The position numbers were made by a program, and so were the translations under genes. Shown in pieces: positions 1,505-12,640 of a stretch of DNA of 12,640 nt. The stretch spans positions 1 through 12,640 of the IMG/VR virus record IMGVR_UViG_2526164619_000008; one strand, 5' to 3'. Origin of the DNA: a virus (Duplodnaviria > Heunggongvirae > Uroviricota > Caudoviricetes). Every line of letters begins with the position of its first letter. Positions within the stretch are counted from its first letter, which is position 1. A model generated the notes under the pieces. It did no database searches. It was not told the DNA's origin and was given only the letters and a program-made list of their open reading frames with translations.

Positions 1505-4336
1505 TTATTCTGATGTCACTCTTTGCGAGTGAGCTATTTTTAAATCAGCGTTTCCTTCAAATACTATATTCAACTCATAGTTAAGAGTTAGCTTGAATTT
1601 ATCTGAGTCACTTTTGATATTCTCTGAAGTGACATTTACTAACTTATTATTATCATATTCTCTAATAATTAATTTAGTGAAGTAGTTATCCTTTACCACT
1701 AGAGAAAATGGTTGATTAACAAATGGTAAGAAGTAAACCTTACAGGTACCGGATTCAGTAGTTATGTTCATAGAGCCATCATCATTTTTTCTCATTAGTT
1801 CTCTGAGGTTGGGATTATCGAAAAGCATACGATTATATTGCTGAAAGATCTCTTTACTCATCACAAGAACCAGTTTGCCAGCCAAGTCAGCAGATGATTT
1901 TATGTGATCAATCAACATATTGAAATCTTCTATTACGGTATGTTGCGAACAGCCAGTGCTAAATAAATTTGAAAGTATTATTCTCTGGATGTCCTTGAGA
2001 ATTAAGTCTGCTTGAATATCACCTTCATTGATATAAGGGATGGATTCTATTCCTTCGGCATACGGTTCTTTATCTATCTTAATAGATATCTTATGTTTTG
2101 TGAAACAATCGCTAGCCTGCTTAAAATCAATAGATTTGAAAAGTGAAAGAGGGAGTGTTTTCTTGATGCGTTTACGAAGATGTTCTGATGTTTTACGTGC
2201 AGTGCTATCTAGTCGATGTACATCTATGGCAGCATCCTGAAGTCTCATATCAAGATCTTTCTTTAGCATGTTAATATGCTCTTGAAGCAACTTTCTTAAG
2301 TTTTCTTTTTTTGTTTGGAGATCGTCCAATGTTAAAGTCAGCTTGATTTTAGTGTATTCGATGGAGTTACAAATTTTTGATAATACTCCAATGAGTCGTT
2401 GCTTCTCACGATATGTTATATAGTTTTTTTCTATTGCTTCTTTTATTTCTTTTGATACGCTATCGTTCTTGTTAGAAAAAATTAATAATAGCTGAACCCA
2501 TGATTGTTCCATATCAATAAATCCACAGTCAAAAACATTACTGTAAACTCTGCCCATCACCATGTCTGTTTTATCATAGTCACGTAAACGCCTTGCTAAA
2601 CTATTCATCCACCCATTGTGCTCCATATTTTCAGACCATGTCCACAGGCAGATTCTAATTAATATCTTGATTAGTTGGCTTGCATTATCAATTTCTTCAG
2701 TGGGAGTTTCATATCCACCGGTTTGGTCAATAAGTTTACCCTCTAAAATAAGTTTAATGTAATGTGTCATTAATTTGTCAGAAATATTGATTCTTGATGT
2801 CAGATAAAGACATGTGCATATACGCATGTCAGTCAACGCATTTATGATGGCAATATTGAACCACTCTCTGTCTGAATTGAAGTTTAGTTTTTTGGATATG
2901 AAAAAACCCGGGTTAAAAAGCTGGCCTTTGTAACTGTATTTTTCTACCGAATGGCTGTCAATATTCATTGAGTGCTGCCATCGGTTAATAAGAACGACGG
3001 CTGTATCAATAGTAGAAGGATCGCGAGTCTGTGTTGCATCAATAATCATCGATGGAAGTTCTTGTAGTTGCGTTTTGCAAAATAATTCAAATAAATCTGA
3101 ATTCTCTGTATTGCAGAAACGAAAGTTTATGCTTTCTTGATATTGCTCCCAAACAGTGGTATAGGTTCTTAATATACGATTATAACGTGAACGAAGCGAG
3201 GCATTTAAGAGTGATTGGTTGTTTCGGAACCATTCTGTTAATATTGACCATTGTGAACGAGTAATTCCCATATAGATACAAAGTTCATTGGTGATAAGAT
3301 GTTTTCTATTATTGATAATACGCACTCCGCTCCAAAGACATAATTCAAAAAATCTTTCAGAAAGATTAATTTTATCCATGGAATTATTTGATATTTTATA
3401 AACTTCATCTGAAAACTCATATTGAAAACTCCGTTCAAATAATTCTGTAGTGATCAGTAAGAAGTTATTGTTGGTATTATCATCTTGAAAAAAATACAAA
3501 TCGCAGAGATTATTAAAGTTATTAATTAATGCAGAGATAGCATTGTCAAAACTAATGAGATCAGAATCCCGCAGATACATATACGTATCTGCTGTTATAG
3601 CCTGCATTGTAAGACTTACGGAAAAATCTCCTCCTTTAATCGGAGCCCTATAAAAACATTGCTTAAGTATTTTTATTAATAAGCTGTCTGGTTTGATATT
3701 TTTAACGCTAAAAAGTATCTTACCCGTGGATTCTGTTTCTTTTGTACGATTATCACCAATGACAAATGACGCAAAATGATTCTTCTTTTTTAGTTGGTAA
3801 TTAATAAGATTAAGAGTAAGTTGAAAAGGACGGTGATATAAACTTAACTCATCTTCCTTAGAATAACTGCTAGCCACAGATATGTATTCTCCTTTGTAAC
3901 CGGCTTGCTTGATTTCTAAATTTGAATAGTTATGTTTTTGATAGATAGGGTATAACCTAAGCTTGGCTGAGATTTTGTTACAAATATGGGGCATTACTAT
4001 TTCGAAGGCAATGTATCGCTTTATAATTATTTGCCGTTTTACATCATCAAGAATTTCAAGACTCACGATAAAGAACCAAATAGAAAGAACTATGTTTATC
4101 AAAAGCCATAATATGCTGATTAGACAAGCTATACCATAAAGATAACTTCCAAAGACAGTTTTAATTAGTACACTGAGAAGTATAAATCCTGATAAGAAAA
4201 GCCCGCTGAGTCCAGCAAGCATGAATCCTGAGTAACGCTGATAAGCAGTTTGGGCTATTTTTCTATCTGCCTTTTTTTGGAATAAGACACTTACTAAACC
4301 TATAACAAGTGGGTATACAATACCAATAATTGTCAA
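1505..4336 (-). CDS. Large orphan protein (~943 aa) with a hydrophobic N-terminal region (about three predicted transmembrane helices) and a long Ile/Asn/Lys-rich soluble domain with coiled-coil-like stretches; function unknown
   Basis: Single uninterrupted ORF in a visibly AT-rich segment. The ORF-track start is TTG at 4336; the first in-frame ATG is at 4222 (codon 39), so the true start is uncertain. No Walker A or other catalytic motif recognised by eye. Confidence 0.7.
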   Translation of the reverse strand: MTIIGIVYPLVIGLVSVLFQKKADRKIAQTAYQRYSGFMLAGLSGLFLSGFILLSVLIKTVFGSYLYGIACLISILWLLINIVLSIWFFIVSLEILDDVKRQIIIKRYIAFEIVMPHICNKISAKLRLYPIYQKHNYSNLEIKQAGYKGEYISVASSYSKEDELSLYHRPFQLTLNLINYQLKKKNHFASFVIGDNRTKETESTGKILFSVKNIKPDSLLIKILKQCFYRAPIKGGDFSVSLTMQAITADTYMYLRDSDLISFDNAISALINNFNNLCDLYFFQDDNTNNNFLLITTELFERSFQYEFSDEVYKISNNSMDKINLSERFFELCLWSGVRIINNRKHLITNELCIYMGITRSQWSILTEWFRNNQSLLNASLRSRYNRILRTYTTVWEQYQESINFRFCNTENSDLFELFCKTQLQELPSMIIDATQTRDPSTIDTAVVLINRWQHSMNIDSHSVEKYSYKGQLFNPGFFISKKLNFNSDREWFNIAIINALTDMRICTCLYLTSRINISDKLMTHYIKLILEGKLIDQTGGYETPTEEIDNASQLIKILIRICLWTWSENMEHNGWMNSLARRLRDYDKTDMVMGRVYSNVFDCGFIDMEQSWVQLLLIFSNKNDSVSKEIKEAIEKNYITYREKQRLIGVLSKICNSIEYTKIKLTLTLDDLQTKKENLRKLLQEHINMLKKDLDMRLQDAAIDVHRLDSTARKTSEHLRKRIKKTLPLSLFKSIDFKQASDCFTKHKISIKIDKEPYAEGIESIPYINEGDIQADLILKDIQRIILSNLFSTGCSQHTVIEDFNMLIDHIKSSADLAGKLVLVMSKEIFQQYNRMLFDNPNLRELMRKNDDGSMNITTESGTCKVYFLPFVNQPFSLVVKDNYFTKLIIREYDNNKLVNVTSENIKSDSDKFKLTLNYELNIVFEGNADLKIAHSQRVTSE

Positions 4337-4871: not shown

Positions 4872-5980
4872 TTATTCTATTTCTGCTATCCATTCCGGGA
4901 TTTTTGCTTCAAGTTCAAGCTGCGTGGTAAAGCCGCTGTTATCAATGGTGTGCTCGGCTTTTGCAATAATCCAGTCCTGATAATCAATCTCGCTTTTAAA
5001 GCCTGTCACTGTGCCATGCATTTCGGGATAGAGTTCTGCACGACCACGCGCCAGCGTGATGGAGAATGATGCGGCTCCGCGTTGTAGCTGCTGCCACTTT
5101 GCCGCCGCTGCGCGTCTTGCTGCCTGCTCGTTCTGATAAGTCTTGCGTAACACAAACACGTTGCCTTCCGCACCTTCCATATAGTCGCCTTCCCGACTGC
5201 TGCTTTTCTCCTTTTTGGGTTTTGGCGGTTTGCGGCGTTTCACGTTGACTTTTTTCTTTTCCCGTAATTAAGATCAAGCCAGTAGGCGCGTACCCCTGTA
5301 TACGCCTCGCGGTCAGCAATGCGGAACTGATGGCGATCGCCGCTGCTGCGTGTAATGGCGAACGAGGGCAACGGCTGCCCCTGTGCGTTCACGCCACCAC
5401 CTGGCATGATGAATAACAGATTGCCGCTTTTTACCGTGGCGATTGCTCCCAGCATTTCCGCCATGCGCGTAAGAAAGGACATGTCGCTTTCTTCGGTCTG
5501 GTCGGCGTGGTCGATTTCGATATCCATCAGCATTTCGCTGATTTGCGGTTTCAGGCCGTACCGATGAGCGATGGCGGATACCACACGCTCAACGGTCACA
5601 TCATGCCAGGACACCTCACGTTTAACGTTAAATTCATCCCGAAAATCTGCGCTTCTGGCTGAAACAGTCAGCCTGTCCGGCGGTCCTTCGTGAGCGATTT
5701 CATCAACAATGTAAGTGCCTTTTTCTGTCAGCGGTTCCCCTTTCCAGCCAATGAGAACCGTCAGACGCGCGCCCCGTGGCGGTAGCTGCAACTGACCATC
5801 CGCATCATCCAGCGTGATGGTGAGCTGGTCCGCCTCAAATCCCCGGTTGTCGGTCAGTGACAGGCACATCAGGCGCTCCGCCACGCCTGACAGCGTTTTA
5901 CCCTCCGAGAGAATATCAAAATCCGGCATTTTCACGGGGGCCGTGCCCTGACTGAGCAATTGCATGGTGGTGTCGGTCAT
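4872..5980 (-). pseudogene. D: P2-type tail protein D, interrupted by one frameshift in a homopolymer run (5250..5255)
   Basis: Two adjacent minus-strand ORFs (5240..6112 and 4872..5243) together match gpD (LTDNRGFEADQLTITLDDADGQLQLP..., SWHD, ITRSSGDRHQFRIADREAYTGV, REGDYMEGAEGNVFVL, GFTTQLELE). Adding one A to the AAAAAA run restores ...GKRKKVNVKRRKPPKPKKE.... Likely start is ATG at 5980 (MTDTTMQLL) with AGGGAGGGAG upstream. Confidence 0.85.
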
Positions 5981-6137
5981 CTGCTCCCTCCCTGTGCGGC
6001 ATGGTCGCATGTGCGTGCGGATGGGGTTACTGCTTTTTGTTGTCGCCGTGGCGGGAGAACGGCGCAGGGGTGAGATTGCGCGCGTGGTGGGTGATGATTG
6101 TTGCTGAATCATTTAACGGATACAAGGGGCTGAAGCT

Positions 6138-7322
6138 ATGAGTGAAACTCGTTTTCATGGTGCCCGTGTTACGGAGAATACCGACCTGGTAACAGCGATT
6201 AACGATGTTGATTCCAGCGTTATCGGTATCGTGGCAACGGCGGATGATGCGGACGCGAAGCTGTTCCCGCTGAACAAGCCCACACTGCTGACCCGCGTCA
6301 ATGACGTGCTGGGAAAATGCGGGACAACGGGGACGCTTTATCGTGCGCTTAAGGCCATCGCAGACCAGGTGAGCACAAAGGTGATCGTCGTTCGCGTGGC
6401 TGAACACAAAGAAGAAGACGGAAAGACGCAGGATCAACTGGTTATCGGTGGTTCTGAGGATGACGGCAGCTATACGGGGATGTATGCGCTGCTTGTTGCA
6501 GAGCAGGATGAAAGCATCGGATACCGTCCGCATATTCTGGCCGCGCCGGAGCTGGACACGGAGGCGGTAACAAAATCCCTGTGCGTGATTGCAGATAAAC
6601 TGCGCGCGTTTGTGTATGCCTCATGTCATGGCTGTAACACGATGGCCGAGGCAATTACCTACCGCCAGAAATTCAACGAACGTGAGGTGATGCTCTTATG
6701 GCCGGACTTCATCGCCTACAACCCGAAAAATGGCAAAAACGAAACGTTCCCCGCGCCTGCCTATGCGTGCGGCCTTCGTGCGTACATTGACCATGAACAG
6801 GGATGGCACAAATCGCTGTCCAACGTTCCGGTTAAAAATGTGCTGGGGATGTCGAGGCATGTGTTCTGGTCGTTGCAGGCCGAAGACAGCGATGCCAACA
6901 GCCTCAACAACAAAGAAATCACGACCATTATTCGTCGCAACGGGTTCCGCTTCTGGGGTAACCGCACACCGGAAACGAATGCCTACATCTTTGAGGTGTA
7001 TACCCGAACCGCACAGGTGCTGGCTGATTCAATTGCGGAAGCGCAGTTTGAAACCATCGACAGTCCACTGACGCCTGCGAATGTGAAGGATGTTATCAGT
7101 GCCATCAGGGCAAAACTGGATTCACTGGTGACTGCCGGGAAACTGATTGGCGCGGAGTGCTGGTATGACGTGGTGGATAACAGCACCACGGATTTACGTC
7201 AGGGACGTGTGCGTATTCGCTACAAATATACGCCCGTTCCGCCACTGGAAGACATGGAGCTTTACCAGACGTTTACTGATGAATACTTTGAACCCGCATT
7301 TGCGGTGCTGGGAGGTGCCTGA
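6138..7322 (+). CDS. FI: P2-type contractile tail sheath protein FI (394 aa)
   Basis: Translation contains DADAKLFPLNKPTLL, KLRAFVYAS, LLWPDF, EQGWHKSLSNV, RRNGFRFWGNRT, YTRTAQVLAD, YKYTPVPPLE, which match recalled P2 FI blocks; size matches (P2 FI ~396 aa); AAGGGG RBS. Confidence 0.9.
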   Translation: MSETRFHGARVTENTDLVTAINDVDSSVIGIVATADDADAKLFPLNKPTLLTRVNDVLGKCGTTGTLYRALKAIADQVSTKVIVVRVAEHKEEDGKTQDQLVIGGSEDDGSYTGMYALLVAEQDESIGYRPHILAAPELDTEAVTKSLCVIADKLRAFVYASCHGCNTMAEAITYRQKFNEREVMLLWPDFIAYNPKNGKNETFPAPAYACGLRAYIDHEQGWHKSLSNVPVKNVLGMSRHVFWSLQAEDSDANSLNNKEITTIIRRNGFRFWGNRTPETNAYIFEVYTRTAQVLADSIAEAQFETIDSPLTPANVKDVISAIRAKLDSLVTAGKLIGAECWYDVVDNSTTDLRQGRVRIRYKYTPVPPLEDMELYQTFTDEYFEPAFAVLGGA

Positions 7323-7819
7323 TGGCTGTGCCAAAACATCTTCGCTTTTTTACGCTGTTTGTGGATGGTGAAAACGAAGTGGGTAAGGTGACGTCCGTCA
7401 CTCTGCCTAAGCTGACGCGCAAAACCGACAGCTACCGGGGTGGTGGCATGATGGGTGCGGTAAGTATTGATCTCGGTCTGGACGACTCCGCGCTTGATGC
7501 GAGCTTTGTCATGGGGGGCGCAGTTCGTGAGCTGTTCCTTAAGTATGGCGGCACGATTGACGGCACGCTGCTGCGTTTTGCGGGTGAATACTACACCGAT
7601 GCAGAAAGCGACCTGTATGAAGTCGAAATGCGCGGACGTGTGACGGAAATTGATATGGGCGAAGCCACATCACACACTTACGCCATTAAAAACACCTACT
7701 ACAAGCTGAGTGTTAACGATCGCCCGTTGTGGGAGATTGACCTGCTGAACTTCATTTACCGGAAGGACGGCAAGGACATTGTGCCCGATCGCATCCGTTC
7801 CGCGCTTGGGCTTGGCTGA
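7322..7819 (+). CDS. FII: P2-type tail tube protein FII (165 aa)
   Basis: Start overlaps the FI stop (TGATG); GGAGGTG RBS; position and size match P2 FII. Confidence 0.85.
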   Translation: MAVPKHLRFFTLFVDGENEVGKVTSVTLPKLTRKTDSYRGGGMMGAVSIDLGLDDSALDASFVMGGAVRELFLKYGGTIDGTLLRFAGEYYTDAESDLYEVEMRGRVTEIDMGEATSHTYAIKNTYYKLSVNDRPLWEIDLLNFIYRKDGKDIVPDRIRSALGLG

Positions 7820-7874
7820 TAAGTAATATGCTGGCGGCGCAGTGCGTCGCCTCTGACTGAAAAGGAGACAACAG

Positions 7875-8249
7875 ATGAAAGACATCGATACTGAAACCCG
7901 GAATAACACCGTGGCGGATAATGTGACGGCAGTTGAGGATATGGCTGTCGAACGTGGCGTAAAACTGACCCGACCAATTGAGCGTGGTGGCGAAAAAATC
8001 ACGTATGTGGAGATCACCGGGGCTATTGAGCAGGCTGGATCCCTGCGTGGTCTGTCGCTGTCTGATGCGCTGAATCTGAAAGCGGATACCATGTTCACGC
8101 TGTTGCCTCGCGTGACCTCGCCACGACTGGATGAAGTGATGATTAAAAAAATGTCGTCACGCGATTTTATTCAGTTGTGCGCTGTGGCTGTAAATTTTAT
8201 GAGCGAGCCAGACTCTGGCGCGAAGAGCGTGCAGGAGACGGCAGCGTAA
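7875..8249 (+). CDS. E: Tail assembly chaperone E-like protein (124 aa)
   Basis: Called by synteny (directly after FII), AAAGGAG RBS 7 nt upstream of the ATG, and an overlapping -1 frame ORF as in the P2 E/E' pair. Not confirmed by sequence identity. Confidence 0.65.
   Translation: MKDIDTETRNNTVADNVTAVEDMAVERGVKLTRPIERGGEKITYVEITGAIEQAGSLRGLSLSDALNLKADTMFTLLPRVTSPRLDEVMIKKMSSRDFIQLCAVAVNFMSEPDSGAKSVQETAA
8192..8198 (+). other. Candidate -1 programmed frameshift heptamer A_AAT_TTT joining E to E'
   Basis: Zero-frame codons AAT TTT preceded by A give an X_XXY_YYZ heptamer inside the 8177..8249 overlap of the E frame and the -1 frame. Confidence 0.4.
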
Positions 8250-8444: not shown

Positions 8445-8720
8445 GTGGCTTCCATTTCCATCAGATGTCCTTCCTGCACCGCTACTGAAGGCGTGGTGCG
8501 TAACGGCAAAAGCACTGCCGGACATCAGCGCTATCTCTGCTCTCATTGCCGTAAAACATGGCAACTACAGTTCACTTACACCGCCTCTCAGCCCGGTACG
8601 CACCAGAAAATCATTGATATGGCCATGAATGGCGTCGGATGTCGCGCCAGTGCACGCATTATGGGCGTTGGCCTCAACACGGTTTTACGTCACTTAAAAA
8701 ACTCAGGCCGCAGTCGGTAA
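8445..8720 (+). CDS. insA: IS1 InsA (91 aa; GTG start in this copy)
   Basis: Same protein as 719..994 with one substitution (S12T); start codon GTG here versus ATG in the first copy. Confidence 0.95.
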
Positions 8721-9142
8721 CCTCGCGCATACAACCGGGCAGTGATGTGATTGTCTGCGCTGAAATGGACGAACAGTGGGGCTACGTCGGTGCTAAATCA
8801 CATCAGCGCTGGCTGTTTTACGCGTATGACAGGATACGGAGGACGGTTGTGGCGCACGTCTTCGGTGAACGCACTCTGGCCACACTGGAGCGTCTTCTGA
8901 GCCTGCTGTCGGCCTTTGAGGTCGTGGTATGGATGACGGATGGCTGGCCGCTGTATGAATCACGCCTGAAGGGAAAGCTGCACGTTATCAGCAAGCGTTA
9001 CACTCAGCGCATTGAGCGACATAATCTGAATCTGAGACAACATCTGGCAAGGCTGGGACGGAAGTCACTGTCGTTCTCAAAATCGGTGGAGCTGCATGAC
9101 AAGGTCATCGGGCATTATCTGAACATAAAACACTATCAGTAA
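8639..9142 (+). CDS. insB: IS1 InsB reading frame (InsAB' via -1 frameshift at A6C 8696..8702)
   Basis: Same as 913..1416 with one substitution (R55H). Confidence 0.9.
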
Positions 9143-9157
9143 GTTGGAGTCATTACC

Positions 9158-10353
9158 GAGTCGCGCATGGTGGCCCCGTTCCATTTGGGGTTCGGATGAC
9201 CGTTCTCCGTTGTTGCGTGGTATTTTGACGGGCAGTTGACAGTCAGAAACACCGCTTTGTCACCACGGGCTTCGGCCAGAGGTTCCAGCCCCTTCATGGT
9301 GGCCATCATTTCTGCCTTACGGTGAACCGGGTTACTTACTCCCGCGTAATACACTGTCTCGAGATCAATCGTGAACCCGTCTTCATTTTCCAGCATGAAA
9401 CTTTTCAGGAAATCGCGTGTTTTCTCGCGCTGTGCGCGAAACTCGCTTAACGCGTCCTGGCTCAGATAGGGCGATGTTTTTCTGAAAACCAGACAGGCGG
9501 CGCGGAGTTGTTCTTCTCTCCACTCGCAACGTAACAGCCACAGTTTGCGTTTCCACCATTCTGCACAGGTCAGGCGAAGGATTGCGCCCGGCAGCAGCTC
9601 CGTGTCCGGTTCGTTCCTCCGGTCTTTGTCTGTTGTCAGTGCGTCATAATGTGGAGGCATGGCGTGCAGGTGTAACGCCATGCGGGCCAGCATCTGATAC
9701 GCCTTCAGCGTTACATCCATGGTCAGTTCGCCATCGGTCGCGCCAAAGCCATCGCAGAGTTTTTCGAAGGTGCTGCTGAACATCGCTGCCGTCATGGTGG
9801 CCAGTGTCTGTATCTGGTGTTTGTTGAGCTGCGGCAGGTAAAGCAAATCGTCCAGGCGTTCGCGTCCGGCAAGGGAGCGATAACCCTGTGTCAGCCAGCG
9901 GTGATCGGTGCGCTCCAGACGTTCGAATATTTTGCGCAGGTTTCCGCGCGCGTAGCGTTCAGCCTGCCAGCTCTTTTTGCCTTTCTGACGATCGGCTTCC
10001 TGTTTTTTGCGCAGGAAGGAGAGGTGGCGAATAAGCGGATCGCGCAGATAGGACGGCAGCAGGCGCAGCGAGGCCATGGCTTCATCCACCGCGCCGCGTG
10101 CCTGTTTTCTGGCATCTCCTGCCAGTGTGATGGTTTTGTCCTGTTTTTCCTGTGCGTCCAGGCTTTTATTAATCAGGTTGCCCAGCGGCGTTGCGGAGAA
10201 CGCCGCATCAGCCATTTCCTGGCGGCGCTCGTTCTCTACCCGGTAGGCATCCAGCCAGGAGGAAAGCGCGGATTCAGGAGCGGGGATCCCCGTTCCTTCA
10301 CGCCCCACTGCGTGGCGCGGTTGTTGCCAGTCCCTGATGTACTCTGCCGTCAT
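9158..10353 (-). pseudogene. A: P2-type replication initiation protein A, N-terminal ~398 codons only; 3' part replaced by IS1
   Basis: Translation has HAVGREGTG and FLTVNCPSKYHATT blocks resembling recalled P2/186 A-protein motifs; the ORF runs from ATG 10353 into the IS1 right end, whose sequence supplies the last 7 codons and stop. P2 A is ~761 aa, so the catalytic C-terminal half is missing. Confidence 0.7.
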
Positions 10354-10866: not shown

Positions 10867-11112
10867 TCATGCTCTGATTTCCCTCAGTAGCTGGTTGAAC
10901 ATCTGGGTTAGTGGGTTGCTACACCCAAACGGCATCGGGTTTACCTGATAAGAAAAGCGCCCGCCTGTTTTGCGCTCTTTTCTTATGACTGAACCGCTGC
11001 GCCAGAGACGGCGTAGCTCCGCATTAATGGTTGTGGTTGGTGTATTCAGTACTGCGGCGATTTCTCCACCGCTACAACCCGGATTGGCAGCGATGTAGTC
11101 CAGAATGATCAT
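10867..11112 (-). CDS. Hypothetical small protein (81 aa), possibly a winged-helix DNA-binding protein
   Basis: AGGAG RBS 8 nt upstream; ATGA start/stop overlap with the upstream ORF suggests translational coupling. Confidence 0.55.
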   Translation of the reverse strand: MIILDYIAANPGCSGGEIAAVLNTPTTTINAELRRLWRSGSVIRKERKTGGRFSYQVNPMPFGCSNPLTQMFNQLLREIRA

Positions 11113-11312
11113 CTGCGTGACTCCTGTACCTGTCTGATAAGATTTACCTGCACCACGTTGGTGGCGCAGAAGTAAGTGCCGTCAGTGAGATAGATGTGAT
11201 GTGCATCCTTTTCTGAACGGTGTTTGTCGATTGTGGTAATCAGGCGTTCGTCAACTTCGTATTCACGTCCTCTGGAGGTGAAACGAACGACAGGAAAATG
11301 CTTAATTGCCAT
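11109..11312 (-). CDS. Hypothetical small protein (67 aa from the ATG at 11312)
   Basis: Strong AAGGAGG RBS 5 nt upstream of the internal ATG (MAIKHFPVVRF...); the ORF track begins earlier at a GTG (11363) with no RBS. Confidence 0.55.
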   Translation of the reverse strand: MAIKHFPVVRFTSRGREYEVDERLITTIDKHRSEKDAHHIYLTDGTYFCATNVVQVNLIRQVQESRR

Positions 11313-11398
11313 TACGCCTCCTTGGCGTGTGCGAATACCTCCGCGAATGCGGATTGTTTTCACATTTTCTTATTTAACCTGGGGTCTTATTTGCGCGG

Positions 11399-11512
11399 TT
11401 ATTCTTCAGTGAAAAAGCGTTCAATCTTTTTTACTGAATTAATAATTCGCATAATCCCAATGGCGCAGACCACCGAAATAATCAGAACAAGCCATGAGAT
11501 AAATATACTCAT
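11399..11512 (-). CDS. Small hydrophobic peptide (37 aa), single predicted transmembrane helix
   Basis: Translation MSIFISWLVLIISVVCAIGIMRIINSVKKIERFFTEE; its ATG overlaps the TGA of the upstream ORF (ATGA). Absent from the ORF track because it is under 60 aa. Confidence 0.4.
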   Translation of the reverse strand: MSIFISWLVLIISVVCAIGIMRIINSVKKIERFFTEE

Positions 11513-11751
11513 GCGATATTTCCCAGCTTATACGGTTCAATATGTTCCCCGCATTCTGCGGCACAGATCAGCTCGGAAAGTTCGTTAAGTGCATCCAGAT
11601 CATCAGCGTAAAAAGCCACGTCATACAGACTTCGGATTGCTCTGGTCAATGAGTCACGGGCCGCACGTTCAGCATGAGCGCCTGATGCACTTAAGCGAAA
11701 ATAAAAACGCTCAAGTGCTTTGTTAATGAGAGTTTTATATTCTTTGCCCAT
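11509..11751 (-). CDS. Hypothetical protein (80 aa)
   Basis: ORF in the same minus-strand operon; weak RBS; not recognised. Confidence 0.5.
   Translation of the reverse strand: MGKEYKTLINKALERFYFRLSASGAHAERAARDSLTRAIRSLYDVAFYADDLDALNELSELICAAECGEHIEPYKLGNIA

Positions 11752-12266: not shown

Positions 12267-12640
<374 letters not shown>

Follow-up and report, generated by a model that had tools for sequence, protein, structure and literature searches.

The window analysed here, that is the whole stretch of 12,640 nucleotides from the Caudoviricetes record IMGVR_UViG_2526164619_000008, carries on its minus strand a 37-codon open reading frame at positions 11399..11512, with an ATG start at 11512-11510 and a TAA stop at 11401-11399. 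According to the open reading frame listing of the window, its product is the 37-aa peptide MSIFISWLVLIISVVCAIGIMRIINSVKKIERFFTEE, which is identical to WP_000021668.1 of E. coli SE11. An initial annotation of this DNA had placed the frame, with no strand given, in a gap between the frames of its track and had claimed that its start overlaps the upstream stop. Both statements are correct: the frame reads from 11512 to 11399 between the minus-strand frames 11509..11751 and 11109..11312, and window positions 11509-11512, tcat as written, give ATGA on the complementary strand.

The description of the gene as unannotated is true for the track of that first reading only, as the frame is annotated in RefSeq, in the GenBank entry of phage P88, in the O157:H7 Sakai genome, and in UniRef. 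RefSeq lists WP_000021668.1 as a hypothetical protein, the P88 entry (AIZ95115.1) and that of the Sakai prophage Sp13 (ECs_5738) are both called ‘membrane protein,’ and the UniRef name is ‘Prophage membrane protein.’ The high number of the ECs_5738 locus tag suggests that it was entered later than the original Sakai annotation. A function label is absent from all four records, and a literature search for DUF4754, the accessions, the peptide sequence, P88, and Sp13 returned nothing on function and no mention of the gene, its accessions, or DUF4754. The gene is already known publicly as a small membrane-protein or hypothetical gene, and identifying it is a sound but unremarkable piece of small-gene annotation.

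The gene upstream (11509..11751, minus strand) encodes an 80-aa protein of the Pfam family DUF4754 (PF15946, E=2.8e-54, 181.7 bits against a cut-off of 27). AlphaFold2 (AF2) models this protein as a helical hairpin (pLDDT 88.7), and a comparison of the model with PDB and BFVD yielded only generic helical bundles, all at E>0.7, and no significant fold match. The next gene of the operon (11109..11312, minus strand) encodes a 67-aa protein of PHROG 3459, a family with no assigned function, and has an AAGGAGG of its own; its RefSeq start is the ATG at 11312. A GTG at 11363, which would extend this product to 84 aa (11109-11363), was rejected as a start since it is GTA in many relatives.

Just 3′ of the peptide gene lies a conserved intergenic element, GAAAAC(A/C)A-TCCGC-N4-GCGGA-GG (11332..11363, minus strand), which is kept in 93 of 93 loci, even where a different gene follows. 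Its hairpin (11340-11353) has a variable loop, 96.7% of its cells in the alignment are paired, and the innermost pair covaries from C-G to U-A. The element is not a canonical sense-strand terminator; a plus-strand reading gives a short terminator-like hairpin and then TTGTTTTC. The element may be a terminator or insulator acting in the antisense direction, a stabiliser of the mRNA 3′ end, or a mosaic junction. The RNA of 11300-11560 as a whole folds somewhat better than its shuffles (z=-2.8).

The genetic setting is best seen in intact prophages. In E. coli SE11, the integrase, the C-type repressor, and the gene in the Cox position are followed by the DUF4761 gene, a 95-aa gene, the DUF4754 gene, and the 37-aa frame, and then by the 67-aa gene and a MarR-like gene, onward to the replication endonuclease gpA. 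The same order is found in P88 (Xuanwuvirus, Peduoviridae), Citrobacter phage Shae_phiSM, vB_EcoM-569R5, and Sakai Sp13, and the context of integrase, C repressor, Cox, DUF4761, DUF4754, and peptide through to gpA recurs on metagenomic contigs. Hence, the early operon to which the initial annotation had assigned the gene is the Cox-to-gpA operon of a P2-like prophage, and the part of that claim that does not hold concerns the window itself, where the promoter-proximal end of the operon has been lost.

The loss is due to an IS911-type element of the IS3 family inserted in the DUF4761 gene (12268..12640, plus strand). This stretch matches IS3-family transposases, we take its end sequence to be that of IS911, and similarity to intact prophages stops at window position 12267 (position 968 of the query). 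The junction between IS911 and DUF4761 is absent from all complete E. coli genomes in the collection. On the other side, gpA is cut short at the right-hand of two IS1 copies (8639-9142) and retains only the N-terminal 405 residues (9136-10353); the second copy lies at 913-1416, and between them are P2-type tail genes, namely sheath, tube, and tail-fibre fragments (4872-8249). With IS911 separating the operon from its early promoter, the copy in the window is a relic, which is probably silent and whose expression is doubtful. The copies in P88, Sp13, and SE11 encode an identical or >85% identical 37-aa product in the same place, and it is only in the window that the context is damaged.

The window also holds a 943-aa frame with a TTG start (1505-4336, minus strand), which is full-length in 5 of 5426 complete E. 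coli genomes and has no match in Pfam, PHROG, NCBIfam, or PADLOC. In its genomes, some of which hold the closest copies of the early region, it is annotated as ‘MFS transporter’ or hypothetical, and it may be a rare cargo of the same prophage.

The peptide gene is common in E. coli. It is found in 1342 of the 5426 complete genomes, about a quarter, including O157:H7 Sakai (in Sp13) and UTI89, at up to three places per genome. The exact peptide sequence occurs on at least 1000 contigs, and its protein cluster has 118 members. Relatives with full-length similarity form 83 clusters at E<=0.1 when a 41-aa read-through member of the cluster is the query, and 149 clusters with the profile of the family alignment. 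P88-like phages match the peptide by tblastn at 85-97% identity, and an exhaustive search of 1.84 billion cluster representatives returned only 8 clusters, among them 41-aa forms with 50-65% identity. Escherichia accounts for almost all members; Shigella, Salmonella, and Citrobacter contribute a few. Relatives with 50-58% protein identity keep the gene arrangement, and the contigs of distant relatives show the same order of an 80-aa DUF4754-like gene, ATGA, and peptide. These useful distant relatives came from an all-against-all search of representatives and from contig look-ups; a scan for DUF4754 gave 2 loci on genome contigs and 80 loci in IMG/VR, where DUF4754 is 100% identical and the diversity is hence limited. 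In draft E. coli assemblies, dozens of ‘partial’ copies of 22-30 aa are annotated at contig ends, which suggests that such assemblies often break at the peptide gene, probably because many strains have more than one P2-like prophage.

Two forms of the family can be distinguished, one of 37 aa (ending in ...KKIERFFT[GED]E) and one of 41 aa (ending in ...IESLFTGDKRRK), and each accompanies a correspondingly diverged type of DUF4754. The residues M1, W7, I24, I30, E31, and F34 are invariant across both forms, and F4, S6, L10, A17, G19, I20, and R22 are nearly so. For example, A17 and G19 are invariant in the smaller alignment (A1) and kept in at least 90% of the larger one (A3), and K28 is invariant in A1 and replaced by Asn in three 41-aa members of A3.

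The initial annotation had regarded the frame as a genuine gene and had proposed its conservation, together with that of the ATGA overlap, in related prophages as a check. The check came out in its favour: the ATG, the overlap, and the open frame are all kept in 94 of 94 scorable related loci, the overlap down to about 50% protein identity. Most of these loci (82) encode 37 aa, and the others encode 41 aa (4), 45 aa (7), or 59 aa (1). The sole disrupted copy, with a 4-nt deletion in the frame, is that of phage 503458, a low-quality record in which gpA is split as well; apart from this record, no variant has lost the ATG or the transmembrane part.

The pattern of substitution shows purifying selection on the peptide. 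Among 32 unique close variants of the 114 nt, the 29 variable sites comprise 15 third, 10 first, and 4 second codon positions. The changes are synonymous in 18 cases and non-synonymous in 19, with no stop, against an expectation of 24%, 72%, and 3.6%, respectively, and the non-synonymous ones are conservative (L/I/F, V/I/A, A/V/T, M/V/I). In distant relatives, saturation of the synonymous sites goes along with a preserved protein. Between the window copy and two such loci (L094 and L098), pS of the peptide gene is 0.77 and 0.82 and its pN is 0.24 and 0.27, versus a pN of 0.54 and 0.48 for DUF4754; constraint is thus stronger on the peptide than on DUF4754. A six-frame test on 38 unique variants found the peptide frame alone open in all of them, with substitutions at 30 third, 21 first, and 13 second codon positions. 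The synonymous fraction of this frame, 0.44, exceeds the expected 0.243 (binomial p=3e-5), and the remaining five frames give 0.14-0.32. An antisense frame of 122 aa that spans the whole peptide gene (11220..11588, plus strand) is spurious, as stop codons break it in 25 of the 38 variants. To judge from this sequence record, the frame is a genuine protein-coding gene of the P2-like prophages of the P88/Sp13 type (Xuanwuvirus).

Length variants of the gene differ at its 3′ end. In about 8% of the sampled loci, homopolymer frameshifts swap the last 4-9 residues, giving 45-aa forms and the like. The variants of 45, 34, 50, and 59 aa are due to single-base indels in an A-run (codons 27-29) or a T-run (codons 32-34), and only the last residues are replaced in them. 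Their frequency implies either that the extreme C-terminus is dispensable or that some copies are decaying. The A-run coincides with an in-frame A_AAA_AAG heptamer (11426-11432, minus strand; codons V27-K28-K29), a -1 slippery motif of the dnaX/IS911 type that is found in 28 of 45 unique variants; together with the T-run at 11412-11416, it is the site at which the genomic frameshift variants of 45, 34, and 50 aa originate. A programmed -1 frameshift at the heptamer was considered and rejected; the motif is missing from the 41-aa forms, the -1 frame ends after one codon, and the occurrence is probably a coincidence.

The relation of the peptide gene to the DUF4754 gene is constant. The DUF4754 gene lies directly upstream with the 4-nt overlap in every locus, within the span between Cox and gpA, and this adjacency is maintained while the downstream genes are exchanged. 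The ATGA is retained in all scorable loci, including those of distant relatives in which the preceding codons differ. The last part of the DUF4754 gene contains a weak Shine-Dalgarno (SD)-like GGGA, which precedes the ATG by 8 nt (11521..11524, minus strand). The duplex of this GGGA with the anti-SD sequence has an energy of -4.3 kcal/mol in the window, and the corresponding values in relatives, with GGGG, GAGGAG, or AGGAGG, range from -5.5 to -10.3 kcal/mol. Such a G-rich element persists 3-9 nt before the ATG despite differences in the DUF4754 residues that it overlaps. From this gene geometry, we infer that the peptide is translationally coupled to DUF4754 and, as the overlap is invariant and the SD weak, that its translation would proceed largely by termination and reinitiation.

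A possible 6-bp hairpin, C-AUGAG/CUCAUG, can be drawn over the start codon of the peptide gene (11493-11513, minus strand), and it is 91% paired across variants. It is not put forward as a coupling device: it shows no covariation, exceeds none of the shuffles, and is indistinguishable from coding constraint.

The single transmembrane helix with a charged tail that had been predicted for the product agrees with the hydropathy metrics and with the AF2 model. The predicted transmembrane helix comprises codons 3-21 (IFISWLVLIISVVCAIGIM; 11450..11506, minus strand), which is the best 19-residue Kyte-Doolittle window (mean 2.81) of a peptide of very hydrophobic composition, and it includes the conserved W7, A17, and G19. 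The predicted tail, codons 22-37 (RIINSVKKIERFFTEE; 11402..11449, minus strand), is basic and amphipathic, with a helical hydrophobic moment of 0.68-0.75 at 100 degrees, and its invariant residues are spaced along one helical face. All charges lie C-terminal to residues 3-21, with K/R at 22, 28, 29, and 32 and D/E at 31, 36, and 37. With the family alignment, AF2 returns a single continuous helix over residues 2-35 (pLDDT 89.5), an architecture on which the metrics for the transmembrane segment and the amphipathic tail agree. A hydrophobic segment of bilayer length with K/R flanking one side only is what a single-pass protein has, and the peptide is predicted to be a single-pass inner-membrane protein, oriented N-out/C-in by the positive-inside rule.

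The peptide has no meaningful match in Pfam, PHROGs, PADLOC, PDB sequences, or NCBIfam, and DUF4754 has only a noise match in PADLOC (E=0.012). A likeness in build to TatA/TatE is apparent, since these also have a short N-out transmembrane helix with a near-invariant Gly near its end (G19 in the peptide), followed by an amphipathic helix. However, the AF2 model of the peptide has no hinge, and membership in the family was rejected. The NCBIfam TatA model reached the 41-aa form at E=0.004 with 16.9 bits against a cut-off of 104, in 2 of 11 members; the Tat-family Pfam models (PF02416) matched no member of the peptide family; and hhalign of the family with E. coli TatA gave a probability of 3.4% over 12 hydrophobic columns. 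Similarly, a holin or another protein of a lysis cassette was rejected on the early-operon position between Cox and gpA and on the lack of any PHROG or Pfam holin match.

Other small proteins offer comparisons of kind or of position. Caulobacter SidA (29 aa) and gp56 of Bacillus phage SPO1 are membrane-anchored small division inhibitors, and AcrZ, MgrB, and MgtS are small inner-membrane regulators. With fewer than 50 aa and a single transmembrane helix, the peptide resembles the SidA, gp56, and AcrZ type, and by analogy its likely mode of action would be the binding of a larger membrane protein; no homology to any protein of this or another type was detected, and the resemblance is one of kind only. 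The class of small single-transmembrane proteins that bind larger ones has been reviewed (PMC12648545). A likeness of position is provided by the P2-related coliphage 186, in which two genes are host-directed according to their annotation: fil encodes a 75-aa product that blocks division of the cell, and dhr a 66-aa product that depresses replication in the host. Both genes belong to the promoter-proximal part of the early lytic operon; they are small, overlapping, and non-essential, and a structured intergenic element, tR1, follows them. Fil and Dhr are larger than the peptide, though, and are not N-terminal transmembrane peptides. Homology to them was rejected, with hhalign probabilities of 0.3% for the peptide with Fil and 0.2% for DUF4754 with Dhr, and tblastn of the peptide misses 186.

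The reading that we favour, at a probability of about 60%, is that of a genuine, conserved small membrane-peptide gene whose product is an early, probably host-directed accessory effector in the inner membrane. To judge from the anatomy of intact prophages, the gene would be transcribed from the early lytic promoter within the operon from Cox to gpA. Ribosomes that terminate on DUF4754 would then restart at the overlapping ATG, aided by the weak SD, and this would be the main route of its translation, such that DUF4754 and the peptide would appear at the same time, soon after induction or infection. The peptide might then bind a host inner-membrane protein or complex as a non-structural accessory effector, with no part in replication or morphogenesis, which is the least certain step. 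It may act by itself or in partnership with DUF4754 as the membrane component, and the partner version is suggested by the constant co-inheritance of the two genes while the downstream genes are swapped. As the family is narrow, confined almost to Escherichia, and has no characterised relative, the assignment of function is a matter of pure inference. The initial annotation had pointed to inhibitors of division, transport, or superinfection and to toxins as possible roles, and neither homology nor the literature searched favours any one of them.

Other explanations differ in what the peptide would do in the membrane, or in whether it matters as a protein. The latter, in which the stretch is conserved for mRNA structure, spacing, or a recombination junction and the open frame is incidental, could draw on the fold of the RNA around the gene (z=-2.8), the conserved hairpin after it, and the circulation of C-terminal frameshift variants. 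However, substitutions concentrate at third positions, the synonymous excess is specific to the peptide frame, the protein is kept where synonymous sites are saturated, and the ATG or transmembrane part is lost in one low-quality record only; among the alternatives, this one alone is close to excluded. It is unlikely, on the whole, that the peptide serves simply as a membrane tether or regulatory subunit whose tail face (I24, V27/K28, I30/E31, F34) binds DUF4754 and that has no target of its own. The adjacency with a 4-nt overlap in every locus while the neighbours vary, the pairing of the 37- and 41-aa forms with matching, diverged DUF4754 types, and the alignment of the invariant tail residues on one helical face are all in keeping with a tether, but linkage alone predicts the co-inheritance of overlapping genes, and DUF4754 (pN ~0.5) changes far more rapidly than the peptide (pN ~0.25).

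A membrane toxin that acts by itself, oligomerising in the inner membrane and dissipating the proton-motive force for early host shut-off or for abortive or addiction killing, is distinctly improbable. The type I toxins Hok, Ldr, Fst, and TisB are small single-transmembrane proteins with a charged tail, and the peptide resembles them in its size, its very hydrophobic helix with charged tail, and its location on a mobile element, here a prophage. Prophage-borne type I membrane toxins do exist (PMC12648545). The layout of a type I toxin-antitoxin system, on the other hand, was looked for and rejected: the peptide gene lies inside an operon, probably coupled, with its start within the stop of the upstream gene, and it has no promoter or leader of its own, no site for an antisense RNA, and no Rfam match. 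The promoter scan of the region gave hits at chance level, none of them placed for an RNA antisense to the frame; the lone plus-strand promoter-like hit (11084-11112) lies 290 nt from it, behind the terminator-like hairpin. Rfam returned only a snoRNA noise match and no antitoxin RNA. Moreover, an early collapse of the proton-motive force would be harmful to a phage that still has about a whole lytic cycle to go through. Slightly less probable again is a peptide for superinfection or phage exclusion, which would block the DNA entry or the development of rival phages in the manner of T4 Imm or prophage Sie. Phage exclusion factors often take the form of small inner-membrane proteins, and the gene is accessory, with about one in four complete E. 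coli genomes carrying it. Yet its place is within the early lytic operon, on the downstream side of Cox, where the C repressor should silence it in lysogens if the regulation is that annotated for P2 and 186; internal promoter hits do not exceed chance, there is no PADLOC match, and the known conversion genes of P2 (tin, old, and fun) are located elsewhere.

Returning to the host-directed effector, a more specific version may be put forward as a speculation with rather long odds against it. DUF4754 and the peptide would form a dedicated two-protein early module found solely in Escherichia P2-like phages, in which the peptide, the better conserved of the pair, is an N-out/C-in membrane anchor that draws DUF4754 to the inner membrane through its invariant cytoplasmic face, and the pair inhibits a host membrane machine such as the divisome, FtsH/HflKC, or a membrane-bound defence effector.

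In the window itself, the gene is an ordinary, already annotated hypothetical gene in a dead prophage. At the level of the family, it is an example of a 37-codon frame validated by comparative genomics alone, and it marks out a small family of phage membrane peptides, restricted to Escherichia, with 37- and 41-aa forms that is always found next to DUF4754. If the peptide is a host-directed early effector, it would open a new approach to an inner-membrane target and supply the first functional context for DUF4754. If the two proteins do form such an inhibitory module, it would represent a mechanism of host takeover or anti-defence that has no described relative.
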